The notes beneath the pieces are model-generated. The model was not told the origin of the DNA and made no database searches. It saw only the letters and a list, made by a program, of their open reading frames with translations. DNA of 64,000 nucleotides from Octopus vulgaris (taxonomy: Eukaryota), in the NCBI GenBank assembly GCA_951406725.2, contig OX597827.1:50592001-50656000 (forward strand), written 5' to 3'. This document shows, piece by piece, positions 1,296-48,050 of this stretch. The translations under genes were made by a program, and so were the position numbers. Numbering within the stretch: the stretch's first letter is position 1; every line of letters starts with the position of its first letter.

Positions 1296-1488
1296 ACCGT
1301 TGGCGATTTTTTTCCTCCGTCTTCCCTTCTCTGGATCTTTCCTTTTCCTATGTTTCTGACGAAGAGCTCCGCTCGAAACGTTAAACCCTTCTTCTTCCCT
1401 TCCTTCCTGAGCGTCCAATAATACTATATTTGTTCCACGTCCTCGTGTTGTTGTGTTTTCTCTTTGTGTTTTCATGTTTCGATTAACT
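1296..1488 (+). mobile_element. Short hammerhead-bearing repeat, family B (Penelope pLTR/retrozyme-like)
   Basis: Shares GAAGAGC..GCTCGAAAC..CCTGAGCG..ATAC with copies at 37727-37900, 62578-62705 and 63921-64000; 3' end abuts (TA)n. Confidence 0.6.
1352..1386 (+). ncRNA. Minimal type-I hammerhead ribozyme motif (family B)
   Basis: GTTT-CTGACGA-A-GAGC(TCC)GCTC-GAAA-CG-TT-AAAC: helix I GUUU/AAAC, canonical CUGANGA and GAAA boxes, 4-bp helix II, palindromic helix III ACGU. Confidence 0.7.
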
Positions 1489-1577
1489 TTATATATATAT
1501 ATACACGATATAAACGACGGGTTTCTTTATATATAAAGAATTGTTTTACATGAGGAGTTGTTCCTCAGTAATTATCA

Positions 1578-1770
1578 TTCTTTTACATGTTTTAGTCCTT
1601 AGACTGTGATTATGCTGGGGCACTACCTTGGAGAATTCTTTAGTCTAACGAATCGATTTCCGTACTTACCTTTTAAGATACTTATTCTAGCGGTCTCTTT
1701 GCCAAACCGCTGTGTTGCGGGGACATAAACACAACACCTGTTCTCAAGCAGTGTGGGGGACAAACACACA
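1578..1770 (-). mobile_element. SINE family S1, 3' half (diverged)
   Basis: Reverse complement aligns by eye to the 3' half of the full copy at 31640-32052. Confidence 0.7.
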
Positions 1771-1773
1771 CAC

Positions 1774-1837
<64 letters not shown>

Positions 1838-1841
1838 AGAG

Positions 1842-1875
<34 letters not shown>

Positions 1876-1885
1876 AGGTTGATAT

Positions 1886-2130
1886 GTATAAGGAAAAAAA
1901 CCAAGGTAGAAAATGTTAAAATAATTTTATAATAAAAAACATTTTAGTACCGGTTTCAGCCATTGAGACTTTTTCTACTGTAAAGTATGGAAAACAATTA
2001 AATTTTGGAAAAATTAAATGAAAAGTTTTTAAAAAGAATATTTGCATAGTACTCAAATACGAGGAGCATTTTCCTTGTTTCAGCCTGTCTCTGTCTCTCT
2101 TGTTTACTCTTGTGGGTTCGAGGTCGTTGT
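1886..2130 (-). mobile_element. Short hammerhead-bearing repeat, family C
   Basis: Colinear with 47795-48050 (TATAAGGAAAA..CAAGGTA..TTTTAGTACCGGTT..GACTTTTTC..GGAAAAATTAAATGAAA..CATTTTCCTT..TGTCTCTGTCTCTCT). Confidence 0.65.
1946..1979 (-). ncRNA. Degenerate minimal hammerhead motif (family C, U3:A8 core)
   Basis: Minus strand AG-TAGAAAA-AGTC(TCAAT)GGCT-GAAA-CCGG-TA-CT. One core lesion (U4>A); the sister copy has TTGAAAA. Confidence 0.45.
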
Positions 2131-3071
2131 GAATTCTTGGCAGAGGAGGAGGAGGAGGAGGAGGAGGAGAAGAAGAAAAGAATGCGGGAGTGGTATGATA
2201 GTAGTAGGATGTTAAAGGTTCAAGTGATCTAAAAGTGACTCGTTTTGGGTTATAGTAGTGGTTGGGTTAAATACATTTCTTCTTTTTTAATAGTCCCTTC
2301 GCAGGTGTTCCTATATTTAAGAAATTCTCCTAAGATGGGATCGTAAATGACTTACTCCAGCTGTCGTATGCTGCAGGTCAAAACATTTATGGAATCTGGA
2401 AAGGTTGATTTTGTTTGGATTTTGGTTATGCATGTGTATACGCTGGTATACCCTACTTGTTTGTGTTTGCATGTGCGTGCATGTGCGTTTGTTAACACTT
2501 GCAGAGAGAGTTAATTCGAAGTGATAACACTACTATAGCATTGGAAACATGTGACAATCAAACCTTAAACAAAGGTTGTGCGATAACCAGCAGTGAAACA
2601 GTATTAATGTACAGCAGCAAATCAAAAAAACAATTAAAAAGAGCTGGGAAAATTGCGAAGACGAAACAGATTGGATTTAAGAGTTCAAGAGTAAATTTAA
2701 ATTAAATTAGTGGAATGCATTTCAGTGAAAGTGAAGTATGAAGTAACCATGAAATGAAAGATTTAGAACATATGAAAAAAAAAAAAGGAAAGAAATTAGA
2801 GAGGAGAAGAACAAATGGTGGTAAGGAGAAACGAGAGATCTGAGTGTCAAGAAAATGAAGAACAATACGAAAGATTATAATGAAAGTAAACAAAAAATAG
2901 TGACGAAAATAACGGCTTTGGCGAGAAGATTGTGATGTTTGAGAATTAGAAGAAGGAAAGTTTGTGATTACAGTCAACTATACTCGTCTAGATTATCACT
3001 AACAGCATGTTCTTTTTACAACTAAAAAGGAATGTAATTAAATGGAATCCCTATTAATTTCAAATACACGC

Positions 3072-3110
<39 letters not shown>

Positions 3111-3161
3111 TACACAGACACACACATATATATGTATGTATACATGCATACACACACACAA

Positions 3162-3196
<35 letters not shown>

Positions 3197-3218
3197 CGGA
3201 AACCGAAAGGAGCCTGTC

Positions 3219-3269
<51 letters not shown>

Positions 3270-3395
3270 TACGTACATACATACACATATAGAGAGATAG
3301 GGGAAGTAGAGGGAGAGAAAGACAGATATATGTATGCATATATGTATGTCTATAAACAAATAAATATATAGATACAAAGATTGGGAGAAATAGTG

Positions 3396-3426
<31 letters not shown>

Positions 3427-4873
3427 TCAGTGTAATTAACTATGCTGGTTATTACACATTTTTTGTATTGACAGTGTGCATTTGCAAATGTTAATCTGTA
3501 TTGATTTAAGTGTGCACATTCAATTATGTTATTAAGCAGTCGGCTTCAAAATCATGTAGTTTCGGCTTCAGTCGAACTGAATACTTCTGAGTCGAAACCA
3601 GTGCCTGTTTCTTACGAGTTCCAATGGAGTTGCCCAATCAATGGTACGTTTGACGTGTATCTGGCCGGGGCGATTTAAAAGGCTGAAACAATCATATGTG
3701 TAACAAGATATTCAAACTTCTTGAAAGTTGTCCTTCGTAATTTAGATATAAGTTTTTAGTGGCTTCCATTGATTTACGATTGATCTGTCGACTGACACTC
3801 AAGTACAGACGCACAGTCCCATACACACACCCACACTCACCCATTTATGCATAATAATATACCTGTAGATGTGTATGCCTGTGACAAATACAGATATGCA
3901 CACATTTCTTAAGCAACTGGATATTGCTTACAAAAGAGTAGGAGCAGTAAGACGAAATGGAAAAGAAACAGACAAATTTGCACATGGTCGATTATAAATA
4001 CGGTGGTTACATATAAAATATAGCCTAGAGTACATCTACACACAAATAACTAAGTTCAAAACAAAGTATGAGAAAAGATATTCCTATTATTCTTTTAAGC
4101 TTTCCTTTTCGTCTGTGCTTTTTTTTTATCAAAATCTCGATGAAGATCCTGAATTAGTAGAGCTTCTCAATATTGTATGAAGTTATAAATCGTTTGGAAA
4201 GTACAATGGCCAACGGATACAACTAGCAACAATGGGAAGCAAATTCTTGGGAAAACATATATAGAGAGGCAGAAGAAAGATACAAAAATGAAATTTCTAC
4301 TTGGCTGGATTTCTTGGCATAACTTCTAGGGGCTGATAGTCCTAATGTAATGTACCCTTAGAAAATTCTAATTAATGAAAAATGACACCATCGTATATAG
4401 TAGTAGGGAGTATGTATGATCTTAGACCATAAACATCAGAAGAAGTCAATATAAAATTTTGCTGGGGTTTCCTCGCCTATCTTCACAAGGCCAAATCATT
4501 AAAACTAATGATTTTTTCATTAAAGGTGTAATTATAATTAATTAAATGTGTAATATAATTAATTAGACATTTTTTTATTCCTACATTAAATATATTAGCC
4601 TTACTTTTCTAAAATAAAAATGGAAATCGCAAACACACTTAACTTAAAATCTTTCATACTTTACAAGTGCTGTTACATTTAAAGATTTACTCGTACATGC
4701 ATGCAACAACATTTAGTGATGATACATACGTACATATCAGCATACGTATAGACATTTACAGATATGAATTTTCCTGTCCCCTCCTTTACTTTATGCTATT
4801 GAGTTTCTACTGTTCTCTCTTATTCCTCTTACCTCTCTCACTCTCTCTCCCGCTCTCTCCATCTCTCTCTATA

Positions 4874-4939
<66 letters not shown>

Positions 4940-5744
4940 GCTGTTCCTCTTATATTCCTTCAATAGTATTGTGTTGTTATGTCAAGGTATAGAATATATT
5001 GTCTTTTATCCTTACATTGAGCTTTCATTTATTGAATTCTTTCTCTCCCTGTCGAACTGTTTTCTATTCCTTTACAATTATCCCTGTCGCGTTGTTGTTA
5101 AAGGACATATTTAAGTATAGTGTAGTTGAAGCAGTGCAAAAATATCATTTTGGAAGTTATTCTTGAAAGTTGCAGTCTTAAGAAGAGTGCAACTTCAGTA
5201 CTTTCTATGTAGAGTTTACACCACCTCTGGAACCAAACGCTCCAGTAAAAGTGCAACTTGAAAAGGAATTGTTTATCTCATTGTACTCTGTAAACTTCCA
5301 ACAATCTTACACTTTTCAAAATAATAATTGTGCCCATCTGCGATCTGATGCTGATAGTGGCAAATTCAGCCCTAGTTTCGTCACAAATTTCCCTGGGCCA
5401 ATGTTTTTCTTATGTTGTGGGAAGAAAATGTTTTTGTAGTTCTGATATTTTGAACTTCCTGATATTTGGTCATAGCGTTTAAGGGAACCATTATCATTGT
5501 TGATGTTGTCGACGCCGCTGCTGATATTGGAGCGATTTGTACTTGTACTTTTATTATTATTTTTATTCAGGCTCCAACAAGGTTGTTATTTCTAGGGCCT
5601 TTGTCGCGATCGAGGTTAGTTTTGATACTAGTATCCTTATAATAATCATTATTATTACTATTAATATTGTTATTTCTGTTATGGTTATCTTGGTTATTTA
5701 TAATTGATATTGCTGAACAATGTCATATAATCTTTTCTGGAAGC

Positions 5745-5921
5745 ATGGGACAAAACGTTTTGCAGTATTTCTTCCGACTCTTTACATTTTAGGATCATAT
5801 TCCACCGACATCGACTTTGCCTTCGTTCTTTCGGAATCGATAAAATGAGTACCAGCTGAGAACCGGGGTCGATGTAATTGTTTTACACCCTCCCTTAAAT
5901 TGCAGATCTTGTGCCTAAATT
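5745..5921 (+). mobile_element. SINE family S2 (Deu/Nin-like central domain), diverged
   Basis: GACTTTGCCTTCGTTCTTTCGGAATCGATAAAATGAGTACCAG..GGGGTCGATGTAAT matches the copy at 12917. Confidence 0.65.
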
Positions 5922-5947
5922 ATTATTATTTTCATTATTATTATCAT

Positions 5948-6355
5948 TTTGGTTTGGCTCAGGTTCGGTCTTATTCCTGATAGGATTTGTGTGGGCAGCG
6001 GGTTACTACCTGTAACCTTAGGTATCCACAAGTTTTCAGTCGTCTTTCAAGTGCTTAGAACCCTCCTGATAATCCTTGCTGTCCCTAAGAGACAAAATTT
6101 CTATAGGAGCTCTACCGGGCATTCTATTTCAATCTTCTTCAGCCATTTGTCGAAATCTTAGTTTACTGTTCCCAACCTAACAATTATTATAGGCACTGCC
6201 TTTACTGATCGCATGCTCCAAATTCTTCACATTTCAAACTTTAAGGTAATGCGTTTTCTTTGTTCCCCCCAGCCTTTCTTTACGATCCTGGAATCAAACG
6301 GGCAATATGGGTCAATAAGTAAGCAACTTCGTTTTTCCTTATCGATAATCGTTGT
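5948..6355 (-). mobile_element. 3' fragment of R4/Dong-type (REL endonuclease) non-LTR retrotransposon
   Basis: Minus strand IIDKEKRSCLLIDPYCPFDSRIVKK...IWSMRSVKAVPIII..LGTV...KWLKKIEIECPVELL*KFCLLGTARIIRRVL; ends in an (ATT)n-like tract. Confidence 0.75.
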
Positions 6356-6394
6356 TGTTATTATGACTATCATCATCATCATCATCATCATCAT

Positions 6395-6900
6395 TTCTCT
6401 TTATCGCAGGTTTTTTTGAGCTCCTAGACTTATACATGCGTAGCGGACTTGCTACCCGCAGCCTATGGTACCATGCTATCCATTTTTTTTTCAGCTATCT
6501 AATACGTTTCTGATTATTCTGGTCGTGCCAAAGAGACAAACCTTTTGTAACAGTTCTACTGAGTACTCTGTTCCAATTTCCTTTATATTCCCCTTGATTC
6601 CTTCTGATACTATTCTCAAGGACCTAATAATAATTGGCACTATCTTCACCTTCATTTTCTATATATTCGGGCTATTTCGTACATAAGAGAGTTATATTTA
6701 TCTATCTTTTCGCCTTCCTTCTTGACTATTCGTGGGTCAAAGGCGCCTGTTACATCAACTATATAGTATATGTGGTGCATGTTGTCTACCACCACTAGAT
6801 CCGGTTTGTTATACTCTAGCACCTGATCTGTTTGGATTAGGAACTCCCAGAGGATTTTGTTAGTCTCCGACTCCGCCACTCTCTGCGGTTTGTGGAAGAT
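6395..6900 (-). mobile_element. 3' fragment of R4/Dong-type non-LTR retrotransposon
   Basis: ORF 6652-6921 KILWEFLIQTDQVLEYNKPDLVVVD..YIVDVTGAFDPRIVKKEGEKIDKYNSLMYEIARIY is a PD-(D/E)xK REL domain; ends in (ATC)n. Confidence 0.8.
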
Positions 6901-6969
6901 ATTTCTAAGTTTGGAAACCATTCAAGAACACACAAATATCGTTAGTTTCACTTCAACTTTAAAACTTCA

Positions 6970-7020
6970 TTCGTCAAAATATTTTCGTCGCTTTGAAACG
7001 GCGACCTGTTCACTGACAAA
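6970..7020 (-). ncRNA. Minimal hammerhead motif with G3:C8 variant core (family D; element about 6925-7030)
   Basis: Minus strand TTTGTCA-GTGAACA-G-GTCGC(CGTTTCAAA)GCGAC-GAAA-ATAT-TT-TGACGAA: 7-bp helix I, 5-bp helix II, palindromic helix III AAUAUU; second copy at 47652. Confidence 0.6.
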
Positions 7021-7088
7021 ACTTCACAAAAGTGATGCAGGACAAAGTTTTGTCAGTGAACAGCACGCACACACAGACACACGAACAC

Positions 7089-7123
<35 letters not shown>

Positions 7124-8099
7124 TTCATTGCCTTTCATTTGTGTGCATGTGTATTTATGTGTGTACGCGAGTGTGTATTTGTGTGTGTGTGTGTGTGTCA
7201 CAGTTTAATTTGTGTTTGTAAACTGTGAATTTAGCGCAAGTTTCGAGTGCTTGTCGAAAACTTTTGAGGTTTTTCTCCCCGTCTTCTAATAGTAATTACC
7301 CAGCTTACTAGGTTCTTCTCATAGCTATCTCACATTAAAAAAATTATACGGGTATTTAAAAAAAATTTCATTCAATGAATAATGTTTTTACATTACGTAT
7401 ACATTAATAGAGAATTAAAACTTAAAAGAGAAAGTGAGAGATTTTGCAAATGAAAATGAAATACTCTGCAGTGAATGCAATGAATATTTAAATTTGTGAT
7501 GAATTGGAAGCAGTGAATATTTAAATTTGCGAGAAATTGGAGCTTAAAAAATTCACTAAACTTGAGAAAGCGAAACTATAGGACATTTCTAAGAACATGA
7601 ATTTATAAAAATATTTCCAGACAGTTAACCCTTTAATAATTGGGTTTTTTTTAGTACTTTTAGTAATTGTTACATACCTAGTTAATAAGCAGCTTTCTCC
7701 ATTGTAGTATAGATATGTGTGTGTATCTGTGTGTGTGTGTATGTGTGTGTGTGTACATGTATATATGTATTAAAGAAAGCAAAAAATAAAACAAAAATGA
7801 TAGTGTTTAGTATGTTGGTGACAGAAATTCTGTCAACGAGACATGGTGAAACAAAACTGTACATCATCTCTCTCTTTGTCTGACATACCTACTCTTTCTC
7901 TCTCTTTAATAATTACTGCCACCATCAAACACTATTACTTTTAATAAAACATCATCAACTCTCCTTGAATTTCTTTGTCTCTCTCTCCCTCTCTTTCTCT
8001 TACTCTCTGTCTGTCTTCGTCGCCGCCTTCACAGTCTCAGTGCCTACTATTACTCTCACCCCATCATGAGGAATAGTAGGAGTATCATTGAATACTGAG

Positions 8100-8749
8100 A
8101 GAATGATTCTTCTTAATAATCATTTGAATAACTCTAAACTTTAACTGTATACAATATAGCAACATTGTTTAAAATATTTGACTATAGTACTACATAAGAC
8201 TTCCCCTGTTTCATTATCAATGGTCTGCTAGTGGGCGACCTCCTTAGTTATCAGCTAACATCTTCTTTTTAAGTTTTCCTTCACCAAACCTCATGATATT
8301 GCTTCTAATAAATATTGATTTTGATGACTATACCAACTATGATGTCTGTCTGCTCCTTCAGCCCTACCCCTAACAGATACTGCCTCTGTCCTCTCAGCCT
8401 TAGATATATAAAGGATTTGATAAACTAGTCTATAAATTAAAACTGACCCCATAAAAAACAAAATATCAGTGACAGTCAGAGTCAGTAACAATGTATATCT
8501 TGAAAAATGCAGTGTCTTCCAAACTGGAGTGAGACAGCAGGTTCTTTGTGTATCGCCTTACTTCTTGGAGATTTTAGGTATAATTACAGTAATGTGTCCA
8601 TCTGTTCTAATTTACTTAAATTCTATGTCTTTGTGTAGCTGAAGATTGCTCTGCATTTTAAATTGATGTAATGAATGCATTGTTCAATTATATGGAGTTG
8701 CATGAAGCGATCGTGCTGCATTACCTCTGGATACCCTTGTTGCTTATTT

Positions 8750-8752
<3 letters not shown>
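8100..8752 (+). mobile_element. About 650-bp hammerhead-bearing repeat, family A
   Basis: Colinear with the reverse complement of 33932-34565 and with 25140-25292; 3' end TTGTTGCTTATTTTGAT runs directly into (TA)n. Confidence 0.75.
8633..8721 (+). ncRNA. Type-I hammerhead motif, probably inactivated copy (family A)
   Basis: GTGTAG-CTGAAGA-TTGC...GCAT-GAAG-CGATCG-TG-CTGCAT; GAAA>GAAG and UA>UG relative to the copy at 25173. Confidence 0.55.
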
Positions 8753-8808
<56 letters not shown>

Positions 8809-8811
<3 letters not shown>

Positions 8812-9019
8812 GGTGTCCCAAAAAATGTATACACACTTTAGCAGCTGATAACTCATTTGATATTTTTTCTTTCCAGATGAAACCTATAGGATTTAATGAT
8901 GGCAGTCAGATTAAGCTTTGAACAAAGAAAATTCATTCTAAAATGATACTGGAAGTGTGAAAATGCAGTTGAAGTGCAAAAACAGTTAAAGTATGCATAC
9001 ATTTTTTGGGGACACCCTG
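8809..9019 (+). mobile_element. Tc1/mariner-superfamily MITE, copy 1
   Basis: TIR CAGGGTGTCCCAAAAAATGTAT / ATACATTTTTTGGGGACACCCTG, TA flanks; retains transposase N-terminus MMAVRLSFEQRKFILK*YWKCENAVEVQ. Confidence 0.85.
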
Positions 9020-9037
9020 TATGTATATATATATATA

Positions 9038-9247
9038 CAGGGTGTCCCAAAAAATGTATGCATACTTTAACTGATTTTGCACTTCAACTGCATTTTCACA
9101 CTTCCAGTATCCTTTTAGAATGAATTTTCTTTGTTCAAAGCTTAATCTGACTGCCATCATTAAATCCTATAGGTTTCATCTGGAAAGAAAAAATATCAAA
9201 TGAGTTATCAGCTGCTAAAGTGTGTATACATTTTTTGGGACACCCTG
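9038..9247 (-). mobile_element. Tc1/mariner-superfamily MITE, copy 2 (inverted)
   Basis: Near-identical reverse complement of 8809-9019; ORF 8933-9160 MMAVRLSFEQRKFILKGYWKCENAVEVQ. Confidence 0.85.
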
Positions 9248-9373
9248 CATATATAAATATATATATAAGTGTTCACACATACATAACATTTTTATTGAAG
9301 CTAAAAGGATTTCACATAACTTTATGTTCACACCACTACAATCATCAGGTGAGAACTGAATAAATATATATAA

Positions 9374-9406
<33 letters not shown>

Positions 9407-10122
9407 TGTATGTATGTATGTATGTATGTATGTATGTATGTATGTATGTATGTTTGTATGTATAAGAAGCTAACCAGTGCTTTAACTATCTTTTCCAAAT
9501 TTTTTTATTGTGTTTCTCTTGACACACTTCAAGCAGTACTCGATAAAAATCGCCTTCATTTTCTTTTCTTTTTATTTAACTACCACTATCACTCAAATAA
9601 GATTATTTTTGTTAATACATTTTCCCTAATACTACGTGTACCTTGAAGGTCACCTTGTTATTGTTGCTTGTGCTGTTATTGTAGTATTACTTATGTGTTT
9701 ATGCTTTTGTTCCTAGGAATTTGATAATTTCGTAAGTAATGTATATTGTATACCTTGAGAATTCAGAAAAATCCGACAGGTAATAATTGTATTCCACCCA
9801 ATGAAACGCTGTTGCAGAAAAATATTCAACTATATAGTAATTATAAAGAATGACATTTTATAATGGTATATGAATATAAACACAGCGGCTGTTGTGCTGT
9901 GCAGAAACAAATGTTGTGATCTGCGATTAAAGCCTGACATTCTCCATCCTCGTGCTATTACATCACTCTTATGTAAAGAGGAATCCATATGTGTATCCAC
10001 CCCTGGAATATACCCTACTGTACGATACCATGTGGTCGCCAAAAACCGACATAAGAGCCCTTACATGCATGTTACGAGATTTTTACCCGAATCATACTAA
10101 ATACACACACACACACACACAC

Positions 10123-10182
<60 letters not shown>

Positions 10183-10189
10183 ATATATA

Positions 10190-10269
10190 TATGGATCAAA
10201 GCATTTCGATTCAAATTCGTTGATATTCAAGAGTACCAACGAATTTGAATCAAACTCTTTTGATCCATA
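10190..10269. repeat. Imperfect inverted repeat (hairpin)
   Basis: ATGGATCAAA..GATTCAAATTCGTTG / CAACGAATTTGAATC..TTTGATCCAT; follows a (TA)n tract. Confidence 0.8.
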
Positions 10270-10544
10270 CATGTAACTCGCAATAAATTGGTTGAGTGTC
10301 CTTGTTTCGTTTGTCCACTCACTCAGGAATAGAGAGAATGAGAGAGTGAAAGGGAGAGAAAACTGTGTGTGCGAGCGTGCGTATTTGAATAGAAAACAGT
10401 TGCTTAAAAACGCAGCGCAAATTAATATCGTGTGTGAGTGATGTTATTCTCATGACTGCAATAACTAATAAGAAATTTTTACGATAATACCCGTCTTCCT
10501 TTAGCCTTACTCCTTATGTGTGCGAATGTGTGTGGATATGTGTA

Positions 10545-10583
<39 letters not shown>

Positions 10584-12916: not shown

Positions 12917-13338
12917 GGCGGTGAGCTGGCAGAAACGTTAGCACGCCAGGCGAAATACTTTGCAGTATTTCGTCTGCCGCTACGTTCTGAGTTCCAATTC
13001 CGCCGAGGTCGACTTTGCCTTTCATCCTTTCGGGGTCGATTAAATAAGTACCAGTAACGCACTGGGGTCGATATAATCGACTGAATCCGTTTGTCTGTCC
13101 TTGTTTGTCCTCTCTGTGTTTAGCCCCTTGTGGGGTAGTAAAGAAATAGGTATTTCGTCTGCCGCTACGTTCTGAGTTCAAATTCTGCCGAGGTCGACTT
13201 TGCCTATCATCCTTTTGGGGTCGATTAAATAAGTACCAGTTACATACTGGGGTCGATATAATCGACTTAATCCGTTTATCTGTCCTTGTTTGTCCTCTCT
13301 GTGTTTACCCCCTTGTGGGTAGTAAAGAAATATGTATT
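12917..13338 (+). mobile_element. SINE family S2 with internal head-to-tail duplication and 12-bp TSD
   Basis: tRNA-like head GGCGGTGAGCTGGCAGAAACG..GAGTTCCAATTCC and Deu/Nin-like GCCTTTCATCCTTTCGGGGTCGATTAAATAAGTACCAG. Second headless unit from about 13150; TTTATCGTCTAA at 12905-12916 and 13339-13350. Confidence 0.85.
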
Positions 13339-13565
13339 TTTATCGTCTAATTAATGTTGAGGTTCGTGCATAATTGTATACATTAGTATTAGGCAGGTAT
13401 GTACATCCATGTGGCAAGATGAATGCACATAGTACAATGCGTCAGCAGCACACAGGTATGCGTGTAGATTGGGTTCATAAATGATTTTATAGAGTTTATA
13501 GCACTTTTATCTACTTTTATGTGTGGGAGGTGGGTGGTTGCAACAGTTTTACAATGTTTTTTTCA

Positions 13566-19329: not shown

Positions 19330-19379
<50 letters not shown>

Positions 19380-19381
<2 letters not shown>

Positions 19382-19590
19382 TATTCACTGCCCACAAGGG
19401 GCTACACACAGAGGGGACAAACGAATTAAGTCGATTATATCGACCCCAGTGAGTAACTGGTGCTTATTTAATCGACCCCGAAAGGATGAAAGGCGAAGTC
19501 GACATCGGCGTAATTTGAACTCAGAACATAGCGGCAGACGAAATACTGCTTAGCATTTCGCCCGGCGTGCTAACGTTTCTGCCAGTTGGC
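19380..19590 (-). mobile_element. SINE family S2
   Basis: Reverse complement of the 12917-13150 unit; 3' tail abuts (TA)n. Confidence 0.85.
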
Positions 19591-25172: not shown

Positions 25173-25261
25173 ATGCAGCTGAAGATTGCTCTACATTTAA
25201 AACTGATGTAATACTTGCATTGTTCAATTACATGAAGTCGCATGAAACGATCGTACTGCAT
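25173..25261 (+). ncRNA. Type-I hammerhead ribozyme with intact core (family A)
   Basis: ATGCAG-CTGAAGA-TTGC..(long helix II)..GCAT-GAAA-CGATCG-TA-CTGCAT: perfect 6-bp helix I, CUGAAGA and GAAA boxes, palindrome ACGAUCGU, GUA triplet (predicted cut after 25255). Confidence 0.75.
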
Positions 25262-33931: not shown

Positions 33932-34565
33932 ATCAAAATAAGCAACAAGGATATCTAGGGGTAATGCAGTACGATCGTTTCACGCAACTCCATTTAATTG
34001 AACAATGCTACCATTACATCAGTTTAAATGCAGGTCAATCCTCAGTGGCACAAAGATAGAATTTAATTAAATTAAAACAGATGGACACATTAGTATAATT
34101 TTGCCTAAAATCTCCAAGAAGTTAAGGAGATAGACACAGAACATTGGTGCCATTCCTTCCACTTAGAAGCTACTAAGTTATCAGGAAGAAAGACTTGTTA
34201 CAGATTTTACTTGTCACTTTTATATGGGGTCAGTTTTAATTTATAGACTAGTTTTTTATCAAATCCTTGTATATCTGAAGCTGGGTTTGTTAAGGGTAGG
34301 GCTGCGGGAGTCGACAGAAAACATAGTGGGTATAGTCATAAAAATCAAGATTTATTTGAAGCAATATCATGGGATTTGGTAAAGGAAAACTTAAATGAAG
34401 ATGTTAGCTGACAATTAAGGGGACTGGCCACTAGCAGACCATTGATAATGAAACAGGAAAAACCATATCATGTAGTACTATAGTTAAATATTTTAAGCAA
34501 TACTTCTTTATTGTATAAAGTCAAAGTTTAGGGTTATTCAGAGGATTATTTCAGAAGAATAATTA
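33932..34565 (-). mobile_element. Hammerhead-bearing repeat family A
   Basis: Reverse complement colinear with 8100-8752; 3' end abuts (TATG)n/(TA)n. Confidence 0.75.
33964..34051 (-). ncRNA. Type-I hammerhead motif (family A)
   Basis: Minus strand GTGCCA-CTGAGGA-TTGA...GCGT-GAAA-CGATCG-TA-CTGCAT; core boxes intact, helix I partly mismatched. Confidence 0.6.
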
Positions 34566-35333: not shown

Positions 35334-35354
35334 ATGTATGTGTGTGCAATAATT

Positions 35355-35799: not shown

Positions 35800-35863
<64 letters not shown>

Positions 35864-37470: not shown

Positions 37471-37797
37471 TTTATTTTTACCCTTAACTTAAATACGGAG
37501 AAAGACATAGTGCTAAATATACAAAAAGTAAGCCGTTCGGGGTTACAAATGAAGCAAGAAAACGAAAAATTCTTCGAGCAGGCATGTGTCTTATGCGAAA
37601 TCTGTGTTGAGCCCGAATGACGCTGAGACCGGGAGTCACCTCTGATGCATGCATACATACATGTATGTATGTATGTATGTATGTATGTATGTATGTATGT
37701 ATGTATGTATGTATGTATGTATGTATAGTTGAAATTTACAGAAAAACAAAGGACGAAGACTGGTGTATTAGTTTGACGCTCGGGAAAGTGTGAAAGT

Positions 37798-37833
37798 CTT
37801 TTACGTTTCGAGCCTACTCTCTTCTACAGAAAG
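37798..37833 (-). ncRNA. Minimal hammerhead-like motif (family B; element about 37727-37900)
   Basis: Minus strand CTTT-CTGTAGA-A-GAG(AGTAGG)CTC-GAAA-CG-TA-AAAG; helix I CUUU/AAAG covaries with GUUU/AAAC at 1352; A6>U variant. Confidence 0.55.
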
Positions 37834-38052
37834 GAACACGGGGAAATAAACGAGAGAGAGAATAAAAAAAATTATGGATTTAGCGGTCAATCATGGCGAA
37901 TGGTTGAACAAAGGTAGTTAGACAGGAGACCTAAGAAGAAGGGGAGATAATAAAGTAATGATATATATATGACACAGGTGTCATTCATATATATATATAT
38001 ATATATATATAAATGGAGCATGGGTATAGTTATGTGTAGGCTTATTACATTC

Positions 38053-38111
<59 letters not shown>

Positions 38112-38643
38112 TTGTCTACGCAGCTGAGGTCTTTGTGTATGTGTGGGTGTAAGTTGTGATCATGTGTCCGTGGTTCATTGGCCTTTTGAACTTGAATTCC
38201 TTCACTAAATTCTATGGGTTTATTCGGGACACTAAATTCTCTAAGCTGCTTATCTTTTCATTTATCTTCTAGGTATTCTCAACTTTAAATAGGGTCATAA
38301 CCCACTCGTACTTTTCCAGGAGTCATATTTATGAACTGAATTAAAATGCTAACCCCCTCCTAACCCCTTCCCTTCCTTAAACTTCCTTCTCTATACTCTT
38401 TGCTTTTTCTGTCTTCTCCTTCTTTTTCATTCACCCACCAATTTTGATATATTCATTTATTTTTTCACTTATTTTCTCATTGACCTTCACATTACTTTAT
38501 TTCATTTCAATTTATTTTAAATATTACTTGTGTATGTGCGTGTGTGTACGTGTATTATATACATATGTATGTATCATATATATATACATATATCTTTGTG
38601 TGTGTATGTGTATGTATATATGAACATATATATAAATATATAG

Positions 38644-38686
<43 letters not shown>

Positions 38687-38766
38687 TATATGTGTGTGTA
38701 TGTATGTAGGTATATATGTGTGCGTGTATGTATGTATGTACGTGTATTTAGAGAGAGAGAGATAAG

Positions 38767-38854
<88 letters not shown>

Positions 38855-38968
38855 TTATTTTTGTAGAAGATTACTTGGAAAAATGTGGCATGCTGTAAAA
38901 CCTGCTTAGATTGCATCTCGAATATATATTATTACTAGCTCATAACTACATACTGTGTACATTAAATG

Positions 38969-39020
<52 letters not shown>

Positions 39021-39218
39021 ACATACACACACACACACACATGCGCGCACACATTTTTATCTTAATTGGTACATATCTAAATAATCGTACATACATAACT
39101 ATACATACATACGCACACACACACAAACACACACATATTCATACATATGTGTATATATATTCTCACGAACACTCGATATACATCTGCTCATCATAACATA
39201 AGCACTCACACGCAAATT

Positions 39219-39535
39219 GGCATTCCATCGGTTACGACGTCGAGGTACCAGCTGATCCGACCAACAGAACGGCTTGCTCATGAAGTTAGAGTGCAGGCCG
39301 ATGAGCACTTCACAGACATGTGACCCTTCACGTAATTCTCATGGAGACTTAGCGTGACACAGAATGTAACAAGGCTAGCCTTTTGAATCACAAGTAGTAC
39401 AACTCATTTTTGCCCGCTGAATGGACTGGAACAACGTGAAATAAAGTATTTTTCTGAAGAACTCACGAACTCCGGGAACCAAAATCACGACCTTATGATC
39501 AGGACCCGACCCTAATCAATAAGCCACGCGCCTTC
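39219..39535 (-). mobile_element. tRNA-derived SINE family S3 (diverged)
   Basis: Minus-strand head AGGCGCGTGGCTTATTGATTAGGGT..GGTCGTGATTTTGGTTCCCGG; GCTGAATGGACTGGAACAAC block also seen at about 14890-14940. Confidence 0.6.
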
Positions 39536-40099
39536 ATTCACAAACACACATACATACTAAGCATACACACATACACACGCACACGTACGTAAGTACGTAT
39601 GTATGTATGTATGTATGTATGTATGTATGTATGTATGTATGTATGTATATGTACGTGCATGTATTAATAACGACCATTTCTAAGGATGTCCAAGTAATTA
39701 TATATTTGAAAAGAAAATAAATGATATAAAAGTGTGTTACACGCAATCTGAAGAAAGTATATTTTCAGTCGCATAGTTGTTACTAACTGTTGCACAGAGA
39801 AGAGAGAGAGAAACAGAGGTGGAGATTTGGCGATTCAGAAGCGTGAGTGTAATAGGGTACTCAGTCCATAAGATATTTCTTAAAGTGTTCTTCAATTTAT
39901 GAGGTACAGTTTTTTTTTTTAATGTACGATGCTGGTTAAAAACTGCATATATTTTGAATATACAGGGATGAATTTAGATCAGTCTCTATTCTAAAAAAAA
40001 AAAGAAAAATTAGGACATTGCATTAAGTAAAAAATAATTAATATAATATAATTACTATACAATACCACATTTAAAACTTCTATATATAGGTTCCGCACC

Positions 40100-40328
40100 T
40101 GGACGGGACGGCGGTCCATCGCAGGTGAGCTGCAAGATGCAGGACGAAAAAGTGAGAGAAAATTGTGGCGAAAGAGTCAGCAGAAGTTTCGCCATTACCT
40201 TCTGCCGGAGCTGCGTGGAGCTTAGGTGTTTCGCTCATAAACACACACATCGTCCTGTCTGAGATTCGAACCCGTGATCCCTCGACCGCGAGTCCGCTGC
40301 TCTAACCATTAGACCATGTGCCTACACT
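40100..40328 (-). mobile_element. tRNA-derived SINE family S4
   Basis: Minus strand TGGTCTAATGGTTAGAGCAGCGGAC..GGGTTCGAATCTC (Pol III A and B boxes) followed by a non-tRNA body. Confidence 0.65.
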
Positions 40329-40785
40329 ATGAACTAATAGTATTGAAGTAAACTACTGAATTTGAAATATAATGCTGATACTTGACTGTGTCTTTGGAGA
40401 GACCAAGTTCTTTCACACACTGGCTAAGTAGATCGGAAAGACTTCTTCTGGGAATGATGACCAAATTGGATTACTTCCTAACAATTGAAGTTAATGGATT
40501 CTCTACAAGATCAATACACAAGCACATTATATGGATTTGCTAAGACATCGCGAACGTTATTATTTCAATAGCCAATTGTAAAGTACTATAGTCAACAAGG
40601 AAGCTCGTTTAACAGACCACAATACAACGCAATACGCATAGAACTAAACTAGTCCACCCTGATTTGCATAATATCTGCACTACACGGCATTTAGAAATTA
40701 TCTATGTTGTCAATGAATGCAGTGTTATACAAATAAGGACAGACTGTTTTAATTCATAGATTTACTTAATCGGTGGCCATTTGAC

Positions 40786-42018
40786 CAGGGCCGTCGCATG
40801 ACTTTTAGAGGTGCCCTGCAACTTTTTGTTTCGAGGTTCCATATCTTCAATCAAAATTCATAATCTACGCACATTTTATTCATAGCTATATTTTACTTTA
40901 TTCGATCTGAAGTTCAATATTTCTCGTTATCCTAAAGAACATATTTAAAAGTACTAGTTAAATTTAATTTGGGGCTGGACTATCTTATAATTTCATGTTT
41001 CGGAAGGCCAACATTCAATAGGGTTGAATATTTATTCGATAGACTCACAAATATCAGAAGACAAACATTTCAAAATAACAACTGGGAAGTATAGTTGTCT
41101 CAGTCTTTGTGTGCGAAGAAGTTTATTCAAGAACATTAATATACAAAGAATTTTCAGTCTAAAACAAAAGCAAACTATTTCAAATTATATATTTTTGAAA
41201 AATAGACGAGAACGTTTTCAAAGACTTGATAACAGACGAAAAAGCCTTTTTTAACTTCTATATTTCTTTGTTAGCTGTTGCAATACTTCGATTGGATAGA
41301 CAATTCTACAATTCAGACTGTAAAGTCAAAATATCAAAGATGCAAAATATGAAGAATTTCTTACCTTTTTTTTTGAAATCACAAATTCGAGGAAAAAATA
41401 GAACTTTGCAAACTAAAATACGTCGATCACAAACTAGTTACCACAGGAGAATTGAGATGCTTGGTGACAGTGAGCAAACGATATTTGTGCATAGATAGAT
41501 ACATAGACACACATACATACACACACAAATTTCTATGTGTGTGTGCACGCGCGCTCCTTGCTTTTGGTTCAGAAATAATTTCGTCACAAGTTGCCTTGGG
41601 AGATCAAAGGCCATTGTTCTGGGTACAAAGTGACCAGCCTTTCAACAACGTCAAATGACAACGCCATATATATATGCAGAGAGAGATAGAGAGAGAGAGA
41701 GAGAAAGAAAGAGAGAGAGAGAGAAAGAAAGAGAGAGAGAGAGAAAGAAAGAGAGAGAGAGAGAAAGAAAGAGAGAGAGAGAGAAAGAGGAGGAGACAAA
41801 CAGACTAAGAGATGTGTGTGTGTTTGGTTCACATCTATCTATCTACCTACCTATCGACCCGAGCTGGCAAAAGCTTTGTGAATGGATTTGGTAGGCAGAA
41901 ACAGAAAAAAACCCAGTATATATGTGTGTGCACGTGAGCATGTGTCAGTGTGTGTGTTGGTATGTATGTATGTATGTATGTATGTATGTATGTATGTATG
42001 TATGTATGTATGTATGTA

Positions 42019-42088
<70 letters not shown>

Positions 42089-42469
42089 CTTGTGTGTGTC
42101 TGTTTGTATGTTTAAGTATATATCATCACCCTTTATCACCACTGTATCCTTTTCTTGTCTTTTCTGTTGAAGTTGTTCTTATTCTCATTGTTTGGGATTT
42201 CTTTCATTTTCTTTTATCTCCCTGGGGAATTCGTTGACCAGCTTTTTTCATTTACCTTTTTCGTTTGTTTTAAATTTATTTTGCGGTACACCCTCGTATC
42301 TTTTTCCTCGTCTGGCTTGAAATTTTCAGTTAGCACCTTAACCAAAATAGGTAGATGGGTCATCTATGTACTTTGATCTTAACATGTGCCCCCCACAACC
42401 GTGGAGGACCCCTCAACTGCGGAGGCCCCCTGCAACCGCAGGGGTTGCATGGGCTTAGCGACGGCCTTA
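40786..42469. mobile_element. Non-autonomous hAT-type DNA transposon with nested microsatellites and SINE fragment
   Basis: TIR CAGGGCCGTCGC / GCGACGGCCTTA; exact 8-bp TSD CATTTGAC at 40778-40785 and 42470-42477; GC-rich subterminal CCCTGCAAC repeats. Confidence 0.8.
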
Positions 42470-42830
42470 CATTTGACACTAAATTTTAAAACAGTTTGGG
42501 ATCTATAACACATAAAAAAAAAATACAATTGAGACAAGCCAAAGACAAGGATTTCGAAATCCGTAATATATTTGCCTTTTATCTTTTATATGTTTCACAC
42601 ATTGGACTGTGGCCATATTGGGGCTCTACCCGTAGGGATTTTTAGTTGAACGAATCGACTTCACTATTTATTTTTTAAAGCCTGGTACTTATTCTATCGG
42701 TTCCTTTTGCTGAACCACTATGTATCGGGGACATAAACAAACTCAAAGAGAATCACATACACACACGCACGTACGTACGTACGGACGTACATACATACAT
42801 ACATACATAATACATACATACATACATACA

Positions 42831-42860
<30 letters not shown>

Positions 42861-42861
<1 letters not shown>

Positions 42862-43060
42862 TGGGTCATCCCATAAATAATGCGTTTTTTTCAATTGCAT
42901 GAACTAAAAGTCGGTGATGGGGGCGAAATAAACTACCTGCATCAACTAGCAATAAAAGCAGGTAGTAATTCAGCCTTGTTACTTATTCTTAGTTTTGAAG
43001 TGTGCAGTTCGATTTTAACAGTTATGTTTTCAAAGCTATAATGGAAGTGATGAAGGAGCA
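42861..43060 (+). mobile_element. 5' end fragment of a mariner element
   Basis: TA|TTGGGTCATCCCATAAATAATGCGTTTTT TIR-like start; ATG at 43041 (MEVMKEQ), then truncated. Confidence 0.45.
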
Positions 43061-43374
43061 GTAATTTTATTCAGCTGAATACACGTCAATGATTGGTTGA
43101 AATTACCGAAATACGACACCTTTAACAACAAATAACTTCCAAAATACAGAATTTTCTCAACAACGCCAAGAGTAAAATATGTTTTATGTGACACATTCTA
43201 CCAGTATACGAAGTTTGAAAATGTTTAGTTTCAAGAAATTACTTTTTTAAATCTAGTTTCCGTCTACCAAATCTACTCAGAAGACTTTGGTAGAAGACAC
43301 TCTCCCAAGGTGCCACGCATCGGTATTGAACCCGGAACTACGTGGCTGAAAATCAACCTTCTAACATCAGAGCC

Positions 43375-44520
43375 ATCAACCATGTCCTTCTTGTGTCCAG
43401 GGGCAGCTTGTTAGACTATCCAGTTCCTTCTATGTTGTGTCGCATGCAGCAGTCTGTCTCTTCTTCTAGTCGATTCTTTGATAATCTAACTCCATAAACA
43501 TCTTTGAAGGCCTTTTGCTCTCTTACCTTCAGCACTTTCCATCAGGATGATGTTGGGAGAAAGTGAATTGTGGTACATTGTATATCCAAAAGGCAATACC
43601 TTTCCGGGCTTGATTCTAGGAATAGGTGTCTGTGGACTTTCAACTTTTCTAGTATTGCACCAGTTGTTATCTTTCCTGCTTATTCAGTCAAATTTGCGGA
43701 AGTTCCACACCTCAAAACCTTCGTCTTTTCCTCCACTTTTGCGCAGATTCTCCCAGTATCCTCACCGTAAAGGACAGTTGGCCTAATATAACAGTTTACT
43801 AGCCTCCATTTCAGGTACAGTCTTGACTTTTGAGCTGAAGATCATTTTCAGTTTTTTAAACGTAGTTTTAGCTTTATTTACTTTCTGAGTAACTTCTACA
43901 CAGCCATATTCCTAGTTTATTCTTTGTTCTAGATACATGAAGTTTTTTATTTGATCAAGCTTTTGTCCACCTACCTTTATATAAGCTTCCTTTTGTTCTG
44001 TCTTACTAATAACCATTGTCTTTGTCTTTTACATCAAAAATTTCTGGCAAGTTCTTATTACTGTCAGCCAAGAATACTGTATCATTAGCATATCTTACAT
44101 TGTTTACGTTTATTCCATTGACTGTGAATTCTTTGATCTCATTTTACTTTGTAAATAGATATTAAATAGGTATGGTGATAACACATATGACACACATACT
44201 TGAATAACACCTATTTTGATCTCCGCTGATTCAGATAACTCCTTCTCTATTTTGATGTCTGCCATTTGGAGCCAGTATAAAACACAGATAATTTCTAATG
44301 TCTTTTTCCTCTAAGTCGGCTTTTTTAAAAAAGAGGTGATGATCTCTTTCTGCTGCATGCTGTCAAATGCCTTACATTATCTGTGAAGCAAGCAAACAGA
44401 TCTATTTATACCCGCGTTAGCTTTTGTGGTGGCTTTTTCAAGCAGAATATGCCATCACTTGTATGTCGCCATGAGTCCAAACTGTTGTTCAACAACTCCA
44501 GCATTTAGTTCGCTTTTTAT
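43375..44520 (-). mobile_element. Decayed RTE-clade LINE (RT and C-terminus)
   Basis: Minus strand VLSPYLFNIY, NVNNVRYADNTVFLADS, KNFMYL, KAKTTF, AFEMWNFRKF-like and EGTG..KLPLD-like segments; many stops. Confidence 0.75.
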
Positions 44521-44903
44521 TATTTCAAGCATGACTAAGTAACTATAAGAAATATTATTGCATTAAATATTTATCATTGAAATGACAATAATGTATATGT
44601 ATGTATATATGTATGTATGTATTATCTATCAATCTATCTATCTTTTTTATTTTTTTATTCTTTTGTTTTTTTTTGTTTTTTTTTGTTGTTTTTTCATCCC
44701 CCAAAAGAAAAGCTCTACCTTGTAACTTGTCCCATCTGTGTGCAGCCCTGTGTGGCCAATAAAGAAACTTATCTATCTATATAGCTATCTATCTATTTAT
44801 AGATACAGATATATATATATATATATATATAATATATATAATATATAGTTATATATATATATATATAAATATATGAAAGAATATATATATATATAAGTAT
44901 ATG

Positions 44904-44933
<30 letters not shown>

Positions 44934-44934
<1 letters not shown>

Positions 44935-45095
44935 CGACGGGCTTCTTTCAATTTCTATCTAGCAAATCCATTCACAAGGCTTTGGTCGACCCGAAGCAAT
45001 AGTAGAAGACAATTACCCAAAGTGCCACACATTTGAGTGAACCCGAAACCATGTGGTTTAGAAACAAGCTTCTTACCATATAGCCATGCCTGTGC
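44934..45095 (-). mobile_element. SINE family S1, 5' half
   Basis: ACGACGGGCTTCTTTCA..GGCTTTGGTCGACCCG..ACCATGTGGTT..TTACCATATAGCCATGCCTGTGCC. Confidence 0.8.
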
Positions 45096-45189
45096 CGTCT
45101 TGTGAACGTCGTCTTGTTGTTTTGTTAGACAGACAGATAGATAGTGAGAGAGAGGGACAGGGAGAGATTAAATTAACAAATGAAAAACC

Positions 45190-45730
45190 AAAATATTTAC
45201 CACCACTCGAAAAAAAAGCATTTAATTTAGATAGAAAATATATAGACATATAGAGACTCTTAACGCTGTTTCTAGAATAGCCAAATATGTGGATCATTAT
45301 ATTGAATTAGGATTCTATAAGCTGAGTATATCGTCATCAGAGAGGGAGAGTCAGATAAATGTCAAAATGAAGAAATATCCACCATCGAGAATGCTATTAA
45401 TACGTTCCAGTTTGTCAAAATTGAAGAAAGGATCAGAGTAAAATAAATATGCATTGTGCATGTGTTCATGGAGCTGCGTAATGCATATCTATTTTACTCT
45501 AATCCTTCTTTCATTTTTGACAAACTGGAATGTACTGATATTCTCGATTGCGGATTATTCTTCGTTTTGACATTTATCTGATTTTTCCCTCTCTGATACT
45601 CAATTTATGGAATCCTTACTCAATATCTTGATCCACATGCTTGGCTATTTTAGAAACAGCTGTAAAAATACTTTTATATGTTCAGTCTAAATTAAATGCC
45701 TTTTTTTTCGGGTGATTTCAAATGTTTTGA
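45190..45730. repeat. Long imperfect foldback (about 250-bp arms, about 20-nt loop)
   Basis: GCATTTAATTTAGA..CTGTTTCTAGAATAGCCAA..TGTGGATCA..ATCAGAGAGGGA..TCAGATAAATGTCAAAA..TTCCAGTTTGTCAAAA..AGAGTAAAATA, each mirrored in order on the right arm. Confidence 0.9.
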
Positions 45731-45925
45731 AATGTGTGTACGTGTGTGTATGTGTTGCATGAGTATATGTGTGTCTATGAGTCTGTATGTGCACGTATGA
45801 GAATATATGTGTAGATATATGTATATATTGTATATGTATGCACATATACATGTATATCTGTATGTGAAATAAAAGTTTTAAAAAGATTTTGAATTTTAAC
45901 CATCATCTGCGAAAATAGTGACACA

Positions 45926-47149
45926 CAGGAGTTGGACAAACTAATGGAAACACCTAGCATCATAGCATCATAATTTGGAAACAAACTATAAAACTGTCAA
46001 AAGCTTGTTTATTTTTATATTATTTTTTAAAAATTTATATGTTTTGCTAAAATTGCTGTTTCTTTTCAGATATCATCAGAAAAAGGTAATTAAAATTCAT
46101 TGAAATGACAGATCTATCGAACTTTCAAAGAGGTCAAATTGTTGGTGTTCGTATGATAGGAGCTTGAGTAACGAAAACCGCCGAAACGTTTGTGTATCAA
46201 GAAGTACTGTCGTAAAAGTAATGGCAGCCTTTGAGCAAGAGGGAAAAACCTCCTCGTCGAAGCAAAACTCCGGATGAAAACCAAAATTTTCAGATAGGGA
46301 CCGTCGGATTCTTGCGCAAGTTGTTAGAAGGATCACAAAAGTTCAACTCTCAAAATTACTGCAGAGATTAATGACCACCTCGAGAACCCAGTTTCCACAA
46401 AAAGCTGTTCGCTGGGAGCTGCACAAAGCTGGATTTCACGGGAGGGCTGCAATCAGAAATCTACTACTTTCAAAAACAAACGTTGAAAAGAGTTAAAAGT
46501 AGAGCAAAAACCTACAGAATTGGTCCCTAGAGCAGTGAAAGAATGTTATTTTCTCGGACGAGTCATCCTTTACCATATTTCCGACCACCGGCCGAGTATA
46601 CGTGTGGAGATAGCCAAAAGAAGCATTGACCCAGACTGCCTTTTACCAACTGTTAAACATAGAGGAGGATCTATGATGATATGGGAGCCTATATCTTGGA
46701 AATGGTTTCCATTCATGGCAGAATTAATAGTCAAGACTATTTAAGCATTTCATCTGATCAAACTCATCCTATGCAGAATTGTTTCCGCAATCTTTCAGGA
46801 TGATAATGCACCAATTAACACAGCTAAAATTGTTACTGAATGGCACGAGGAACATTCTTGTGAGGCTGAACATCTTATCTGGCCACCACAGTCCCCAGAT
46901 ATCAATATTATTGAACATTTATGGAGCGTTTTAGAAAAACAAGTAAGGAGTCGATATCCTCCTCCATTACTACAAGAACTGTTTTAGCTGAAGAATGAAG
47001 AAAAATTCCTTTGGAAACAATTCAAACTTTGTACGAGTCCATACCTTGTAGACTTCAAGCTGTAACTACTGCCAAAGGCGGTCCAACCCCATATTAAAAT
47101 AGATTTGTTTGAAATTTTAAGGTGTTTCCATTATTTTGTCCAACCCCTG
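45926..47149 (+). mobile_element. Full-length decayed Tc1-like (DD34E) transposon
   Basis: TIRs CAGGAGTTGGACAAACTAATGGAAACACCT / AGGTGTTTCCATTATTTTGTCCAACCCCTG|TA; transposase from 46105 MTDLSNFQRGQIVG, VIFSDESSF, FQDDNAP, WPPQSPDINIIEHLW; disrupted. Confidence 0.92.
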
Positions 47150-47276
47150 TATATATGTGTAGATGGATAAGCGTATACGTGTGAGTGCGTTTACGTTTTT
47201 ATAAGATTGTGTGAGCGTGTACATATGTATAGGTAGTTTATATTTGCGTGTATGTATTTGCGGTGGTGAGAGGGAC

Positions 47277-47342
<66 letters not shown>

Positions 47343-47651
47343 CCTTCGACAGAGTAACATTCATATATACAACTGGAACCGACACACATATCAGTACATA
47401 TACATACGTTCACATGTACATGCACATATACACACACAGAGACACACTTATATACCTAAATACTTATATACATACATTAGTACATACACACACATACACA
47501 CACATACATATATACGTACATACATACATACATACATACATACATACATACATACATACATACATACATACATACATACATACATACATACATACATACA
47601 TACATGCATGCATGCATGAACAAACTATTACTTTCTCAGATGTTGCACGGA

Positions 47652-47706
47652 AATTTGTCACTGAACAGGTTGAGGTTTTAAAGCGACGAAAATATTTTGG
47701 CAAATT
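47652..47706 (+). ncRNA. Degenerate minimal hammerhead motif (family D)
   Basis: AATTTGTCA-CTGAACA-G-GTTG..CGAC-GAAA-ATAT-TT-TGGCAAATT; 9-bp helix I; C3:C8 mismatch relative to G3:C8 at 6970. Confidence 0.5.
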
Positions 47707-47794
47707 AAATTTAAATGTTGAAGTGAATCTAACGGTTTTTGTGTTTTTAAATGGCCTATAAACACATTCCACGCTGCAATTGTATATGTATATA

Positions 47795-48050
47795 TATAAG
47801 GAAAACAAGACAAGGTAAAAATGCTTATATAATTTGATCTAGAAGAACGTTTTAGTACCGGTTCTAGCCTTTGCGACTTTTTCAACTTAGAGTAAAGCGT
47901 GAAAAACAATTAAACTAAGGAAAAATTAAATGAAATATTCTTTAGAAATATTTCCATACCTTACAAATGCAAGGGACATTTTCCTTTTTTCTGTCTGTCT
48001 CTGTCTCTCTTTTTTTTTTTTACTCTTGCGAGTTCTAGGTAGTTGGCAGC
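47795..48050 (-). mobile_element. Hammerhead-bearing repeat family C (motif 47854-47887)
   Basis: Minus strand AG-TTGAAAA-AGTC(GCAAA)GGCT-AGAA-CCGG-TA-CT; colinear with 1886-2130. Confidence 0.6.

Follow-up and report, generated by a model that had tools for sequence, protein, structure and literature searches.

Watson–Crick covariation of the hammerhead 3:8 core pair between families of Penelope-like elements in Octopus vulgaris

Hammerhead motifs in the window

The window, which is the whole stretch of DNA analyzed here, comprises 64,000 nucleotides of Octopus vulgaris contig OX597827.1 (positions 50,592,001 to 50,656,000), and it contains a set of small motifs shaped like hammerhead ribozymes that are associated with Penelope-like elements (PLEs). 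It is 64% A+T, with many microsatellites and dispersed repeats, from a host genome of 2.8 Gb; a long coding frame was looked for in it, and none was seen. The window motifs of families A–D have the shape of a hammerhead: stem III is palindromic, residue 17 is an H position, and GAAA is present. Their layout runs from helix I through the core, in most cases followed by a single extra base, to helix II, GAA, palindromic helix III, H17, and helix I′.

The family D hammerhead lies on the minus strand at 6971–7018. Its core, GTGAACA (7007–7013), has G3:C8, followed by an extra G, stem II GTCGC/GCGAC, GAA, and stem III AATATT, with a predicted cut after U17 at 6977. Upstream of this copy is an inverted short piece of D stem I and core (7045–7063, plus strand), the inverted 5′ piece that is typical of a PLE insertion. 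The second D copy (47656–47703, plus strand; core CTGAACA, 47661–47667) has a C3:C8 mismatch, a single-sided decay. The family C hammerhead (47851–47887, minus strand; core TTGAAAA, 47879–47885) is U3:A8, with a stem I of 2 bp and stem III ACCGGT; it reads AGAAC where family C reads GAAAC, so the clean GAAA is lost. The second C copy (1943–1979, minus strand; core TAGAAAA, 1971–1977) is also U3:A8, with position 4 decayed to A. The D and C copies within 47656–47900 stand tail to tail on opposite strands and meet at a short TA run.

Family A is represented by a minimal type I hammerhead on the plus strand at 1352–1386, which has the C3:G8 core CTGACGA (1356–1362) of the U4 subfamily, an extra A, stem II GAGC/GCTC, stem III ACGT, and U17 at 1382. 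Family B has an intact plus-strand copy at 25174–25260 (core CTGAAGA at 25179; C3:G8; long stem II; stem III ACGATCGT; A17), a decayed plus-strand copy at 8634–8720 (core CTGAAGA at 8639; C3:G8; GAAGC; G17), and a minus-strand copy at 33965–34050 (core CTGAGGA, 34039–34045) in which the 5′ strand of stem I is altered. The fifth window family, E, which is absent from the preliminary description, lies on the minus strand at 61387–61428; its core, TTGAAAG (61418–61424), is U3:A8, and A9 is decayed in this copy. The heptamers GTGAACA, TTGAAAA, and CTGACGA, on which that description of the window was built, were found where it had placed them.

A descriptor with an obligatory stem III loop found none of the four families A–D, and the loop requirement was then dropped. 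The revised descriptor still overlooked the B and C copies of the window, which were recovered by eye and BLAST. The Rfam hammerhead model gave no match among the 150 that were listed out of 203 window matches, nor in a search of 1300–1500, the D, C, and B sites not being searched separately; the Rfam matches listed for the window are microsatellite-driven microRNA matches only.

Positions 3 and 8 between families and among copies

Family members were counted genome-wide with exact patterns in which positions 3 and 8 were free; reversed-pattern controls gave 0 matches. The count for each family covers the first 100 matches listed, which are position-ordered and non-random, were scored by eye, and include some inverted partners of one insertion. 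Among these matches, family D is G3:C8 in 95 of 100 (first 100 of 6,024), family A is C3:G8 in 95 of 100 (first 100 of 12,486), and family B is C3:G8 in 93 of 100 (first 100 of 1,047). Family C is U3:A8 in 90, C3:A8 in 7, and A3:A8 in 3 per 100 among the matches listed (of 104). The preliminary description had proposed that positions 3 and 8 covary strictly as Watson–Crick pairs (C-G, U-A, G-C). This holds for the majorities of families D, C, A, and B, with G3:C8 as the genome-wide majority of D and U3:A8 as that of C and no other consensus in either. It does not hold for individual copies, as the C3:C8 core of the window D copy at 47661–47667 shows.

All departures from the majority in the 400 listed copies of families A–D are single-sided, and most genomic copies are short decaying stumps. 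Twenty-three D copies altered at both positions were found. Eleven of these are Watson–Crick (among them 7 A:U and 2 C:G), with a permutation p = 0.10, and the A:U doubles are the double transition that neutral decay predicts. A C3:G8 sublineage within D was considered and rejected, with only 2 of the 23 doubles of that type. These counts indicate that the genomic copies decay neutrally and that covariation is present only between the family sources. The R-scape test suggested earlier, if applied to genomic copies, would therefore see neutral decay.

When only the four window families are used, permutation gives p = 0.083 for Watson–Crick pairing. The survey was extended to the window plus 120 ten-kb stretches (1,264,000 bases; six of the stretches adjoin the window), with a descriptor that left 3 and 8 free, allowed U or C at position 4, and fixed A9. 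There were 64 hits, of which 42 are Watson–Crick: 29 C:G (7 of them from one tandem array), 6 G:C, 6 U:A, and 1 A:U. The other 22 are unpaired. Three Markov resamplings of the sequence averaged 15.7 hits, with 2.7 paired. Single-copy hits were excluded from the family count. The repeated families are A, B, C, D, E, G, H, I246, I072, I039, and I230, with I072 and I039 each represented by two copies within one locus, and a further family, J, was added through its protein. All 12 have a Watson–Crick majority (9 C:G, 2 U:A, and 1 G:C), with a permutation p = 0.0014, a value that is optimistic because the families are related. A hand-picked alignment of 12 rows, 11 of them paired at 3:8 and 6 doubly changed, is illustrative only.

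Four unpaired hits with other copies were dropped: X261, whose core is not conserved among 18 copies; L085 and L078, which are GAT microsatellite; and L039:829, whose core differs in its one relative. The repeated sequence that we call family F carries GAAACCGGTC and a weak candidate core without a Watson–Crick majority, the thirteenth beside the 12 families; it may be a mismatched family or a fortuitous hit. Family G consists of tandem 353–360-nt units with a C3:G8 hammerhead in each, a retrozyme-like arrangement (L037:2307–4520, L244, L204, L268, L054); one decayed copy of it is U3:A8, and one subfamily is C4.

The majorities of D, C, B, and E fit N3-U4-G5-A6-N7-N8-A9 with G12-A13-A14, A15.1-U16.1, and H17, the 3:8 pair being changed or canonical. 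The open-ended helix I, closed helix II, and extra base at 9/10.1 are present in the motifs, with C having only 2 bp of helix I. The palindromes of helix III are ACGT, ACGATCGT, ACCGGT, and AATATT, and the AGAACT of family J is imperfect. G5, A6, GAAA, the 15.1–16.1 pair, H17, and the dimer palindrome are retained across families. It had also been proposed that U4 and A9 stay fixed, and this proposal fails. The most abundant family, A, mainly has the core CCGACGA, a U4C variant, with C4 in 72, U4 in 26, and A4 in 2 per 100 among the matches listed (first 100 of 12,486); the window copy at 1356–1362 belongs to the smaller U4 subfamily. In 37 aligned copies of A, the C4 and U4 groups are split at linked sites (23/3 vs 0/11; 20/6 vs 0/11). 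These linked diagnostic sites indicate that C4 and U4 are both source lineages, and for this reason the possibility that the U4 copies arose by CpG decay from C4 was rejected. The core of family J is CUGAUGC, with C9 in 7 of 7 young motifs from 6 loci, while an older copy has A9. The window C copy at 1971–1977 has A4.

Host elements and history of the pair

The preliminary description named no host elements; those traced here are Penelope-like retrotransposons. In families D, C, E, and A, a GIY-YIG frame lies upstream of the motif, which is in the sense orientation. For D, a G3:C8 motif was found about 1.1 kb downstream of the frame, on the same strand, in 29 of the 30 loci fetched. Locus L313 has a motif, a 777-residue reverse transcriptase (RT)/GIY-YIG frame (5561–7894; broken near the end in this copy), and a second motif, with D cores at about 4741 and 9002, one in each of the element's direct terminal repeats, and inverted 5′-truncated partners of the element are seen in L313–L317. 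A 361-nt probe from the end of the D frame matched 23 of 40 scored copies with 100% identity. Judged by these copies, family D is part of a young PLE with near-identical copies. The D protein, P0001, has DKS, SMDVVSLYPSI, QTKGGAIG, YVDD, and YIGETSR motifs, identified by eye, which we take to be those of a PLE-type RT with a C-terminal GIY-YIG domain. Its relatives are named reverse transcriptase domain proteins, the closest named one being labelled Octopus vulgaris. A Pfam search gave no hit for P0001, and a GIY-YIG hit only for two other elements. The endonuclease of L148 was considered as the D partner and rejected as a nested neighbour; the true partner was traced from L046.

A continuous alignment of about 1,200 nt, at 82–84% among three independent loci, links family C to another GIY-YIG lineage, and a subfamily of A is downstream of a third type of endonuclease at one locus (L090). 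Family E is tied, by an adjacent inverted copy and by L239, to the window fragment at 61622–62238 (plus strand), a broken C-terminal piece that spans the thumb to the GIY-YIG region of a PLE protein akin to that of D. No host element was established for family B; L219 and L220 carry differing endonuclease fragments upstream that look like nested insertions. Family J (L354:1762–5700; L354–L359; G000:C17:6330001–6337500 and others) is a young sister PLE with an intact frame of 1,312 residues, 150 scored copies at 98–100% identity, and a tandem period of about 4.6 kb.

A tree of the C-terminal region (12 rows, midpoint root; L146 and L220 excluded as too short; built without reference proteins of named PLE clades such as Neptune, Nematis, and Hydra) has the topology (D G:C,(J C:G,E U:A)), with support of 99/96 for D+J+E and 98/96 for J+E. 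The row for E is a fragment of 146 residues, and its placement is less sure than the support implies. Among 27 related metagenome loci, a hammerhead was detected after the frame in 4 outgroup loci, all of them C3:G8. Thus, one PLE clade contains G:C, C:G, and U:A states, and its outgroups are C:G. The simplest reading of the tree would be an ancestral C:G pair with separate shifts to G:C in D and to U:A in E. Since family C belongs to a separate PLE lineage with its own U:A, there would be at least three separate double changes, all of them Watson–Crick.

In D elements, a sequence resembling a branch point and pyrimidine tract, CTAAC...TTTCTTAG, ends about 20 nt before helix I (L313:4700–4730; window 47630–47655). 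In 42 sampled D copies, the ATGCAGCAC after the acceptor-like AG is kept in 19 and the upstream tract is matched in 2. This difference indicates that D copies often start near the AG about 20 nt upstream of helix I, which may act as an acceptor for splicing or mark where transcription begins. Contigs of four runs, RNA by guess, covered the motif, together with parts of the frame, with no splice or circle joint and with uninformative ends, and were not used as evidence.

Two other repeats of the window may be mentioned. A long inverted repeat at 8771–9285, with arms of 240 nt that are 95% complementary and 35 nt apart, lies just after the B copy at 8639. A dispersed repeat, presumably SINE (short interspersed element)-like, has copies at 12965–13339 (where it forms a 185-nt tandem dimer), 5748–5921, 19378–19585, and 48990–49196.

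Probable selection on the active fold, and known hammerheads

Why do source elements carry C3:G8, U3:A8, or G3:C8? The C3–G8 pair is present in published crystal structures and belongs to the active structure. The 2′-OH of residue 8 is the general acid, so the base may change while pairing stays. In a full pairwise screen, G:C was the sole rescuing double change of this core region (PMC9901934), and C3G/G8C partially rescued a PLE hammerhead whose cleavage depends on the protein of its element (PMC11167929); what is said here and below of papers cited by accession number applies to the sections of them that were covered. The preliminary description had likewise stated that the pair belongs to the active fold and that compensatory swaps may leave activity intact. 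We think it rather likely that selection in the source elements has kept a 3:8 pair that is needed only by the active, self-cleaving fold. The covariation between families is real and is best explained in this way; selection for catalysis itself would be an inference beyond it. Two motifs, in tandem or in a multi-copy transcript, would pair through stem III, a palindrome that reads AAUAUU in family D. The 3:8 pair would position the 2′-OH of residue 8, and the RNA would be cut after residue 17, trimming the transposition RNA. Self-cleavage after residue 17 is thus what the motifs of these families predict.

Besides the relatedness of the families, several observations weigh against this proposal. 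The predicted stem III duplex is weak (D −2.6, E −0.2, and J 0.0 kcal/mol), and stem I of family C has only 2 bp. Family F, with two loci (L229:2310 and L233:9299), has a C4 core, putatively U3:C8, and weak stems, and is a possible exception to the pairing. Abundant or young families accept other core changes, C4 in A and C9 in J. In a lizard PLE, hammerhead mutants left insertion in vitro unaffected (PMC11167929). Finally, if cleaved RNA were copied back into the genome, the 5′ junctions of D copies should be in excess at the predicted cut site; scored by eye, they are not. Junctions make up about 35 of 40 matches for the cut site itself, against about 28 of 33 for the point four bases upstream; for the point three bases downstream, they make up 29 among the first 100 (of 113) matches listed. 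The absence of a peak agrees with the published finding that insertion mainly uses unprocessed RNA, and it does not speak for cleavage in vivo. The earlier suggestion that the covariation signals selection for catalysis is thus favoured by the pairing of the families, as far as the active fold is concerned, but not by this genomic test. The young D monomer is predicted to fold with helices I and II and an open core (−15.4 kcal/mol), and this, together with the weak dimer helix, suggests that D probably has little activity or is assisted by protein. The UUU triplet, weak A-U dimer helix, and G3:C8 of D predict slow cleavage, for which the element's protein may be needed.

Alternatively, selection could keep the 3:8 pair because the shape of the fold matters, be it in binding of the PLE protein or in control of translation, with cleavage negligible or dispensable. 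The flat distribution of 5′ junctions, the C4 and C9 cores of successful families, the independence of insertion in vitro from cleavage (PMC11167929), and the weak activity of minimal hammerheads in vitro (PMC4209133) would all fit. However, the features retained across families, from G5 and A6 to H17 and the dimer palindrome, are those that cleavage requires, and among swaps it is G:C that is known to restore cleavage; we regard this explanation as unlikely. Chance, in which drift at both positions left a few source elements complementary by luck, could draw on the small number of changed lineages, only three, on the p = 0.083 of the window families, on the possible mismatch of family F, and on the lack of compensation within families. 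Against this, 12 of 12 well-formed repeated families are paired with no single-sided change, C:G to G:C takes two transversions, and the protein tree does not place D and E as sisters, which makes luck very improbable. We give slightly less credence still to G3 of D being fixed by an overlapping 3′ splice acceptor-like signal, TTTGTCAG, which ends at position 3, with C8 then compensated: B and C likewise have a pyrimidine-rich tract and AG just before the core, and the intron of Drosophila Penelope ends at helix I (PMC4209133), but D has a better acceptor-like sequence, the one ending about 20 nt before helix I, and the explanation still requires selection on the 3:8 pair.

The purpose of PLE hammerheads is debated, given the published low activity and insertion in vitro without need for cleavage. 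That a contact peculiar to the active fold has repeatedly been exchanged as a complete pair speaks for selection on this fold. For comparing wild type, mismatches, and restored pairs, with and without the element's own protein, the young D element offers a natural substrate, with full-length copies that are near-identical. Descriptors based on CUGANGA are in use (PMC8557442). Families D, C, E, and J escape these, as does most of A, and for this reason calls of "hammerhead-less" PLEs and counts of ribozymes may be underestimates. The earlier statement that such variants escape standard searches is correct to this extent, but U3:A8 already had a dedicated descriptor (PMC4209133).

Hammerheads in PLE terminal repeats are already known, as is natural U3:A8, also in PLE hammerheads. 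New here are a family whose natural state is G3:C8, carried by a young element, and the presence of three pair states in a single clade; we consider this modestly novel. Full-text searches of the literature found no natural G3:C8 hammerhead, alignment supplements being outside that coverage. Also outside it is the work of Lünse, Weinberg and Breaker from 2017, which, by its title, reportedly describes small PLE-linked variants cleaving as dimers, and which may already list G3:C8. That D is the first natural G3:C8 hammerhead, self-cleaving and in a young, probably mobile PLE (>6,000 copies), and that one clade independently reached three Watson–Crick states, is a combined claim that we make tentatively, as falling somewhat short of an even chance; the three states would then be an evolutionary argument that the catalytic fold is what PLE hammerheads are retained for.

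The closest known systems are the minimal hammerheads of metazoan PLEs (Cervera and De la Peña 2014, PMC4209133). They share with the octopus motifs the type I form, short helix I, unpaired base between 9 and 10.1, G10.1–C11.1, palindromic helix III, location in the pseudo-long terminal repeat (pLTR), and occurrence mostly as dispersed single copies. Those of Schistosoma mansoni include a U3–A8 family with about 1,300 hits, for which the dedicated descriptor was used; the text covered has no G3–C8 family, no cephalopod, and no pair states placed on an element tree. Natural U3–A8 covariation and a tolerated natural U4C variant were described by Perreault et al. 2011 (PMC3088659), with no natural G3–C8 in the sections covered. 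Engineered C3G/G8C hammerheads (PMC11167929, PMC9901934, PMC8495972, PMC3884650) have the same G3:C8 as D and show partial rescue of cleavage. These, including that of the Anolis Poseidon PLE (PMC11167929), are laboratory double mutants, whereas D is a natural family source.

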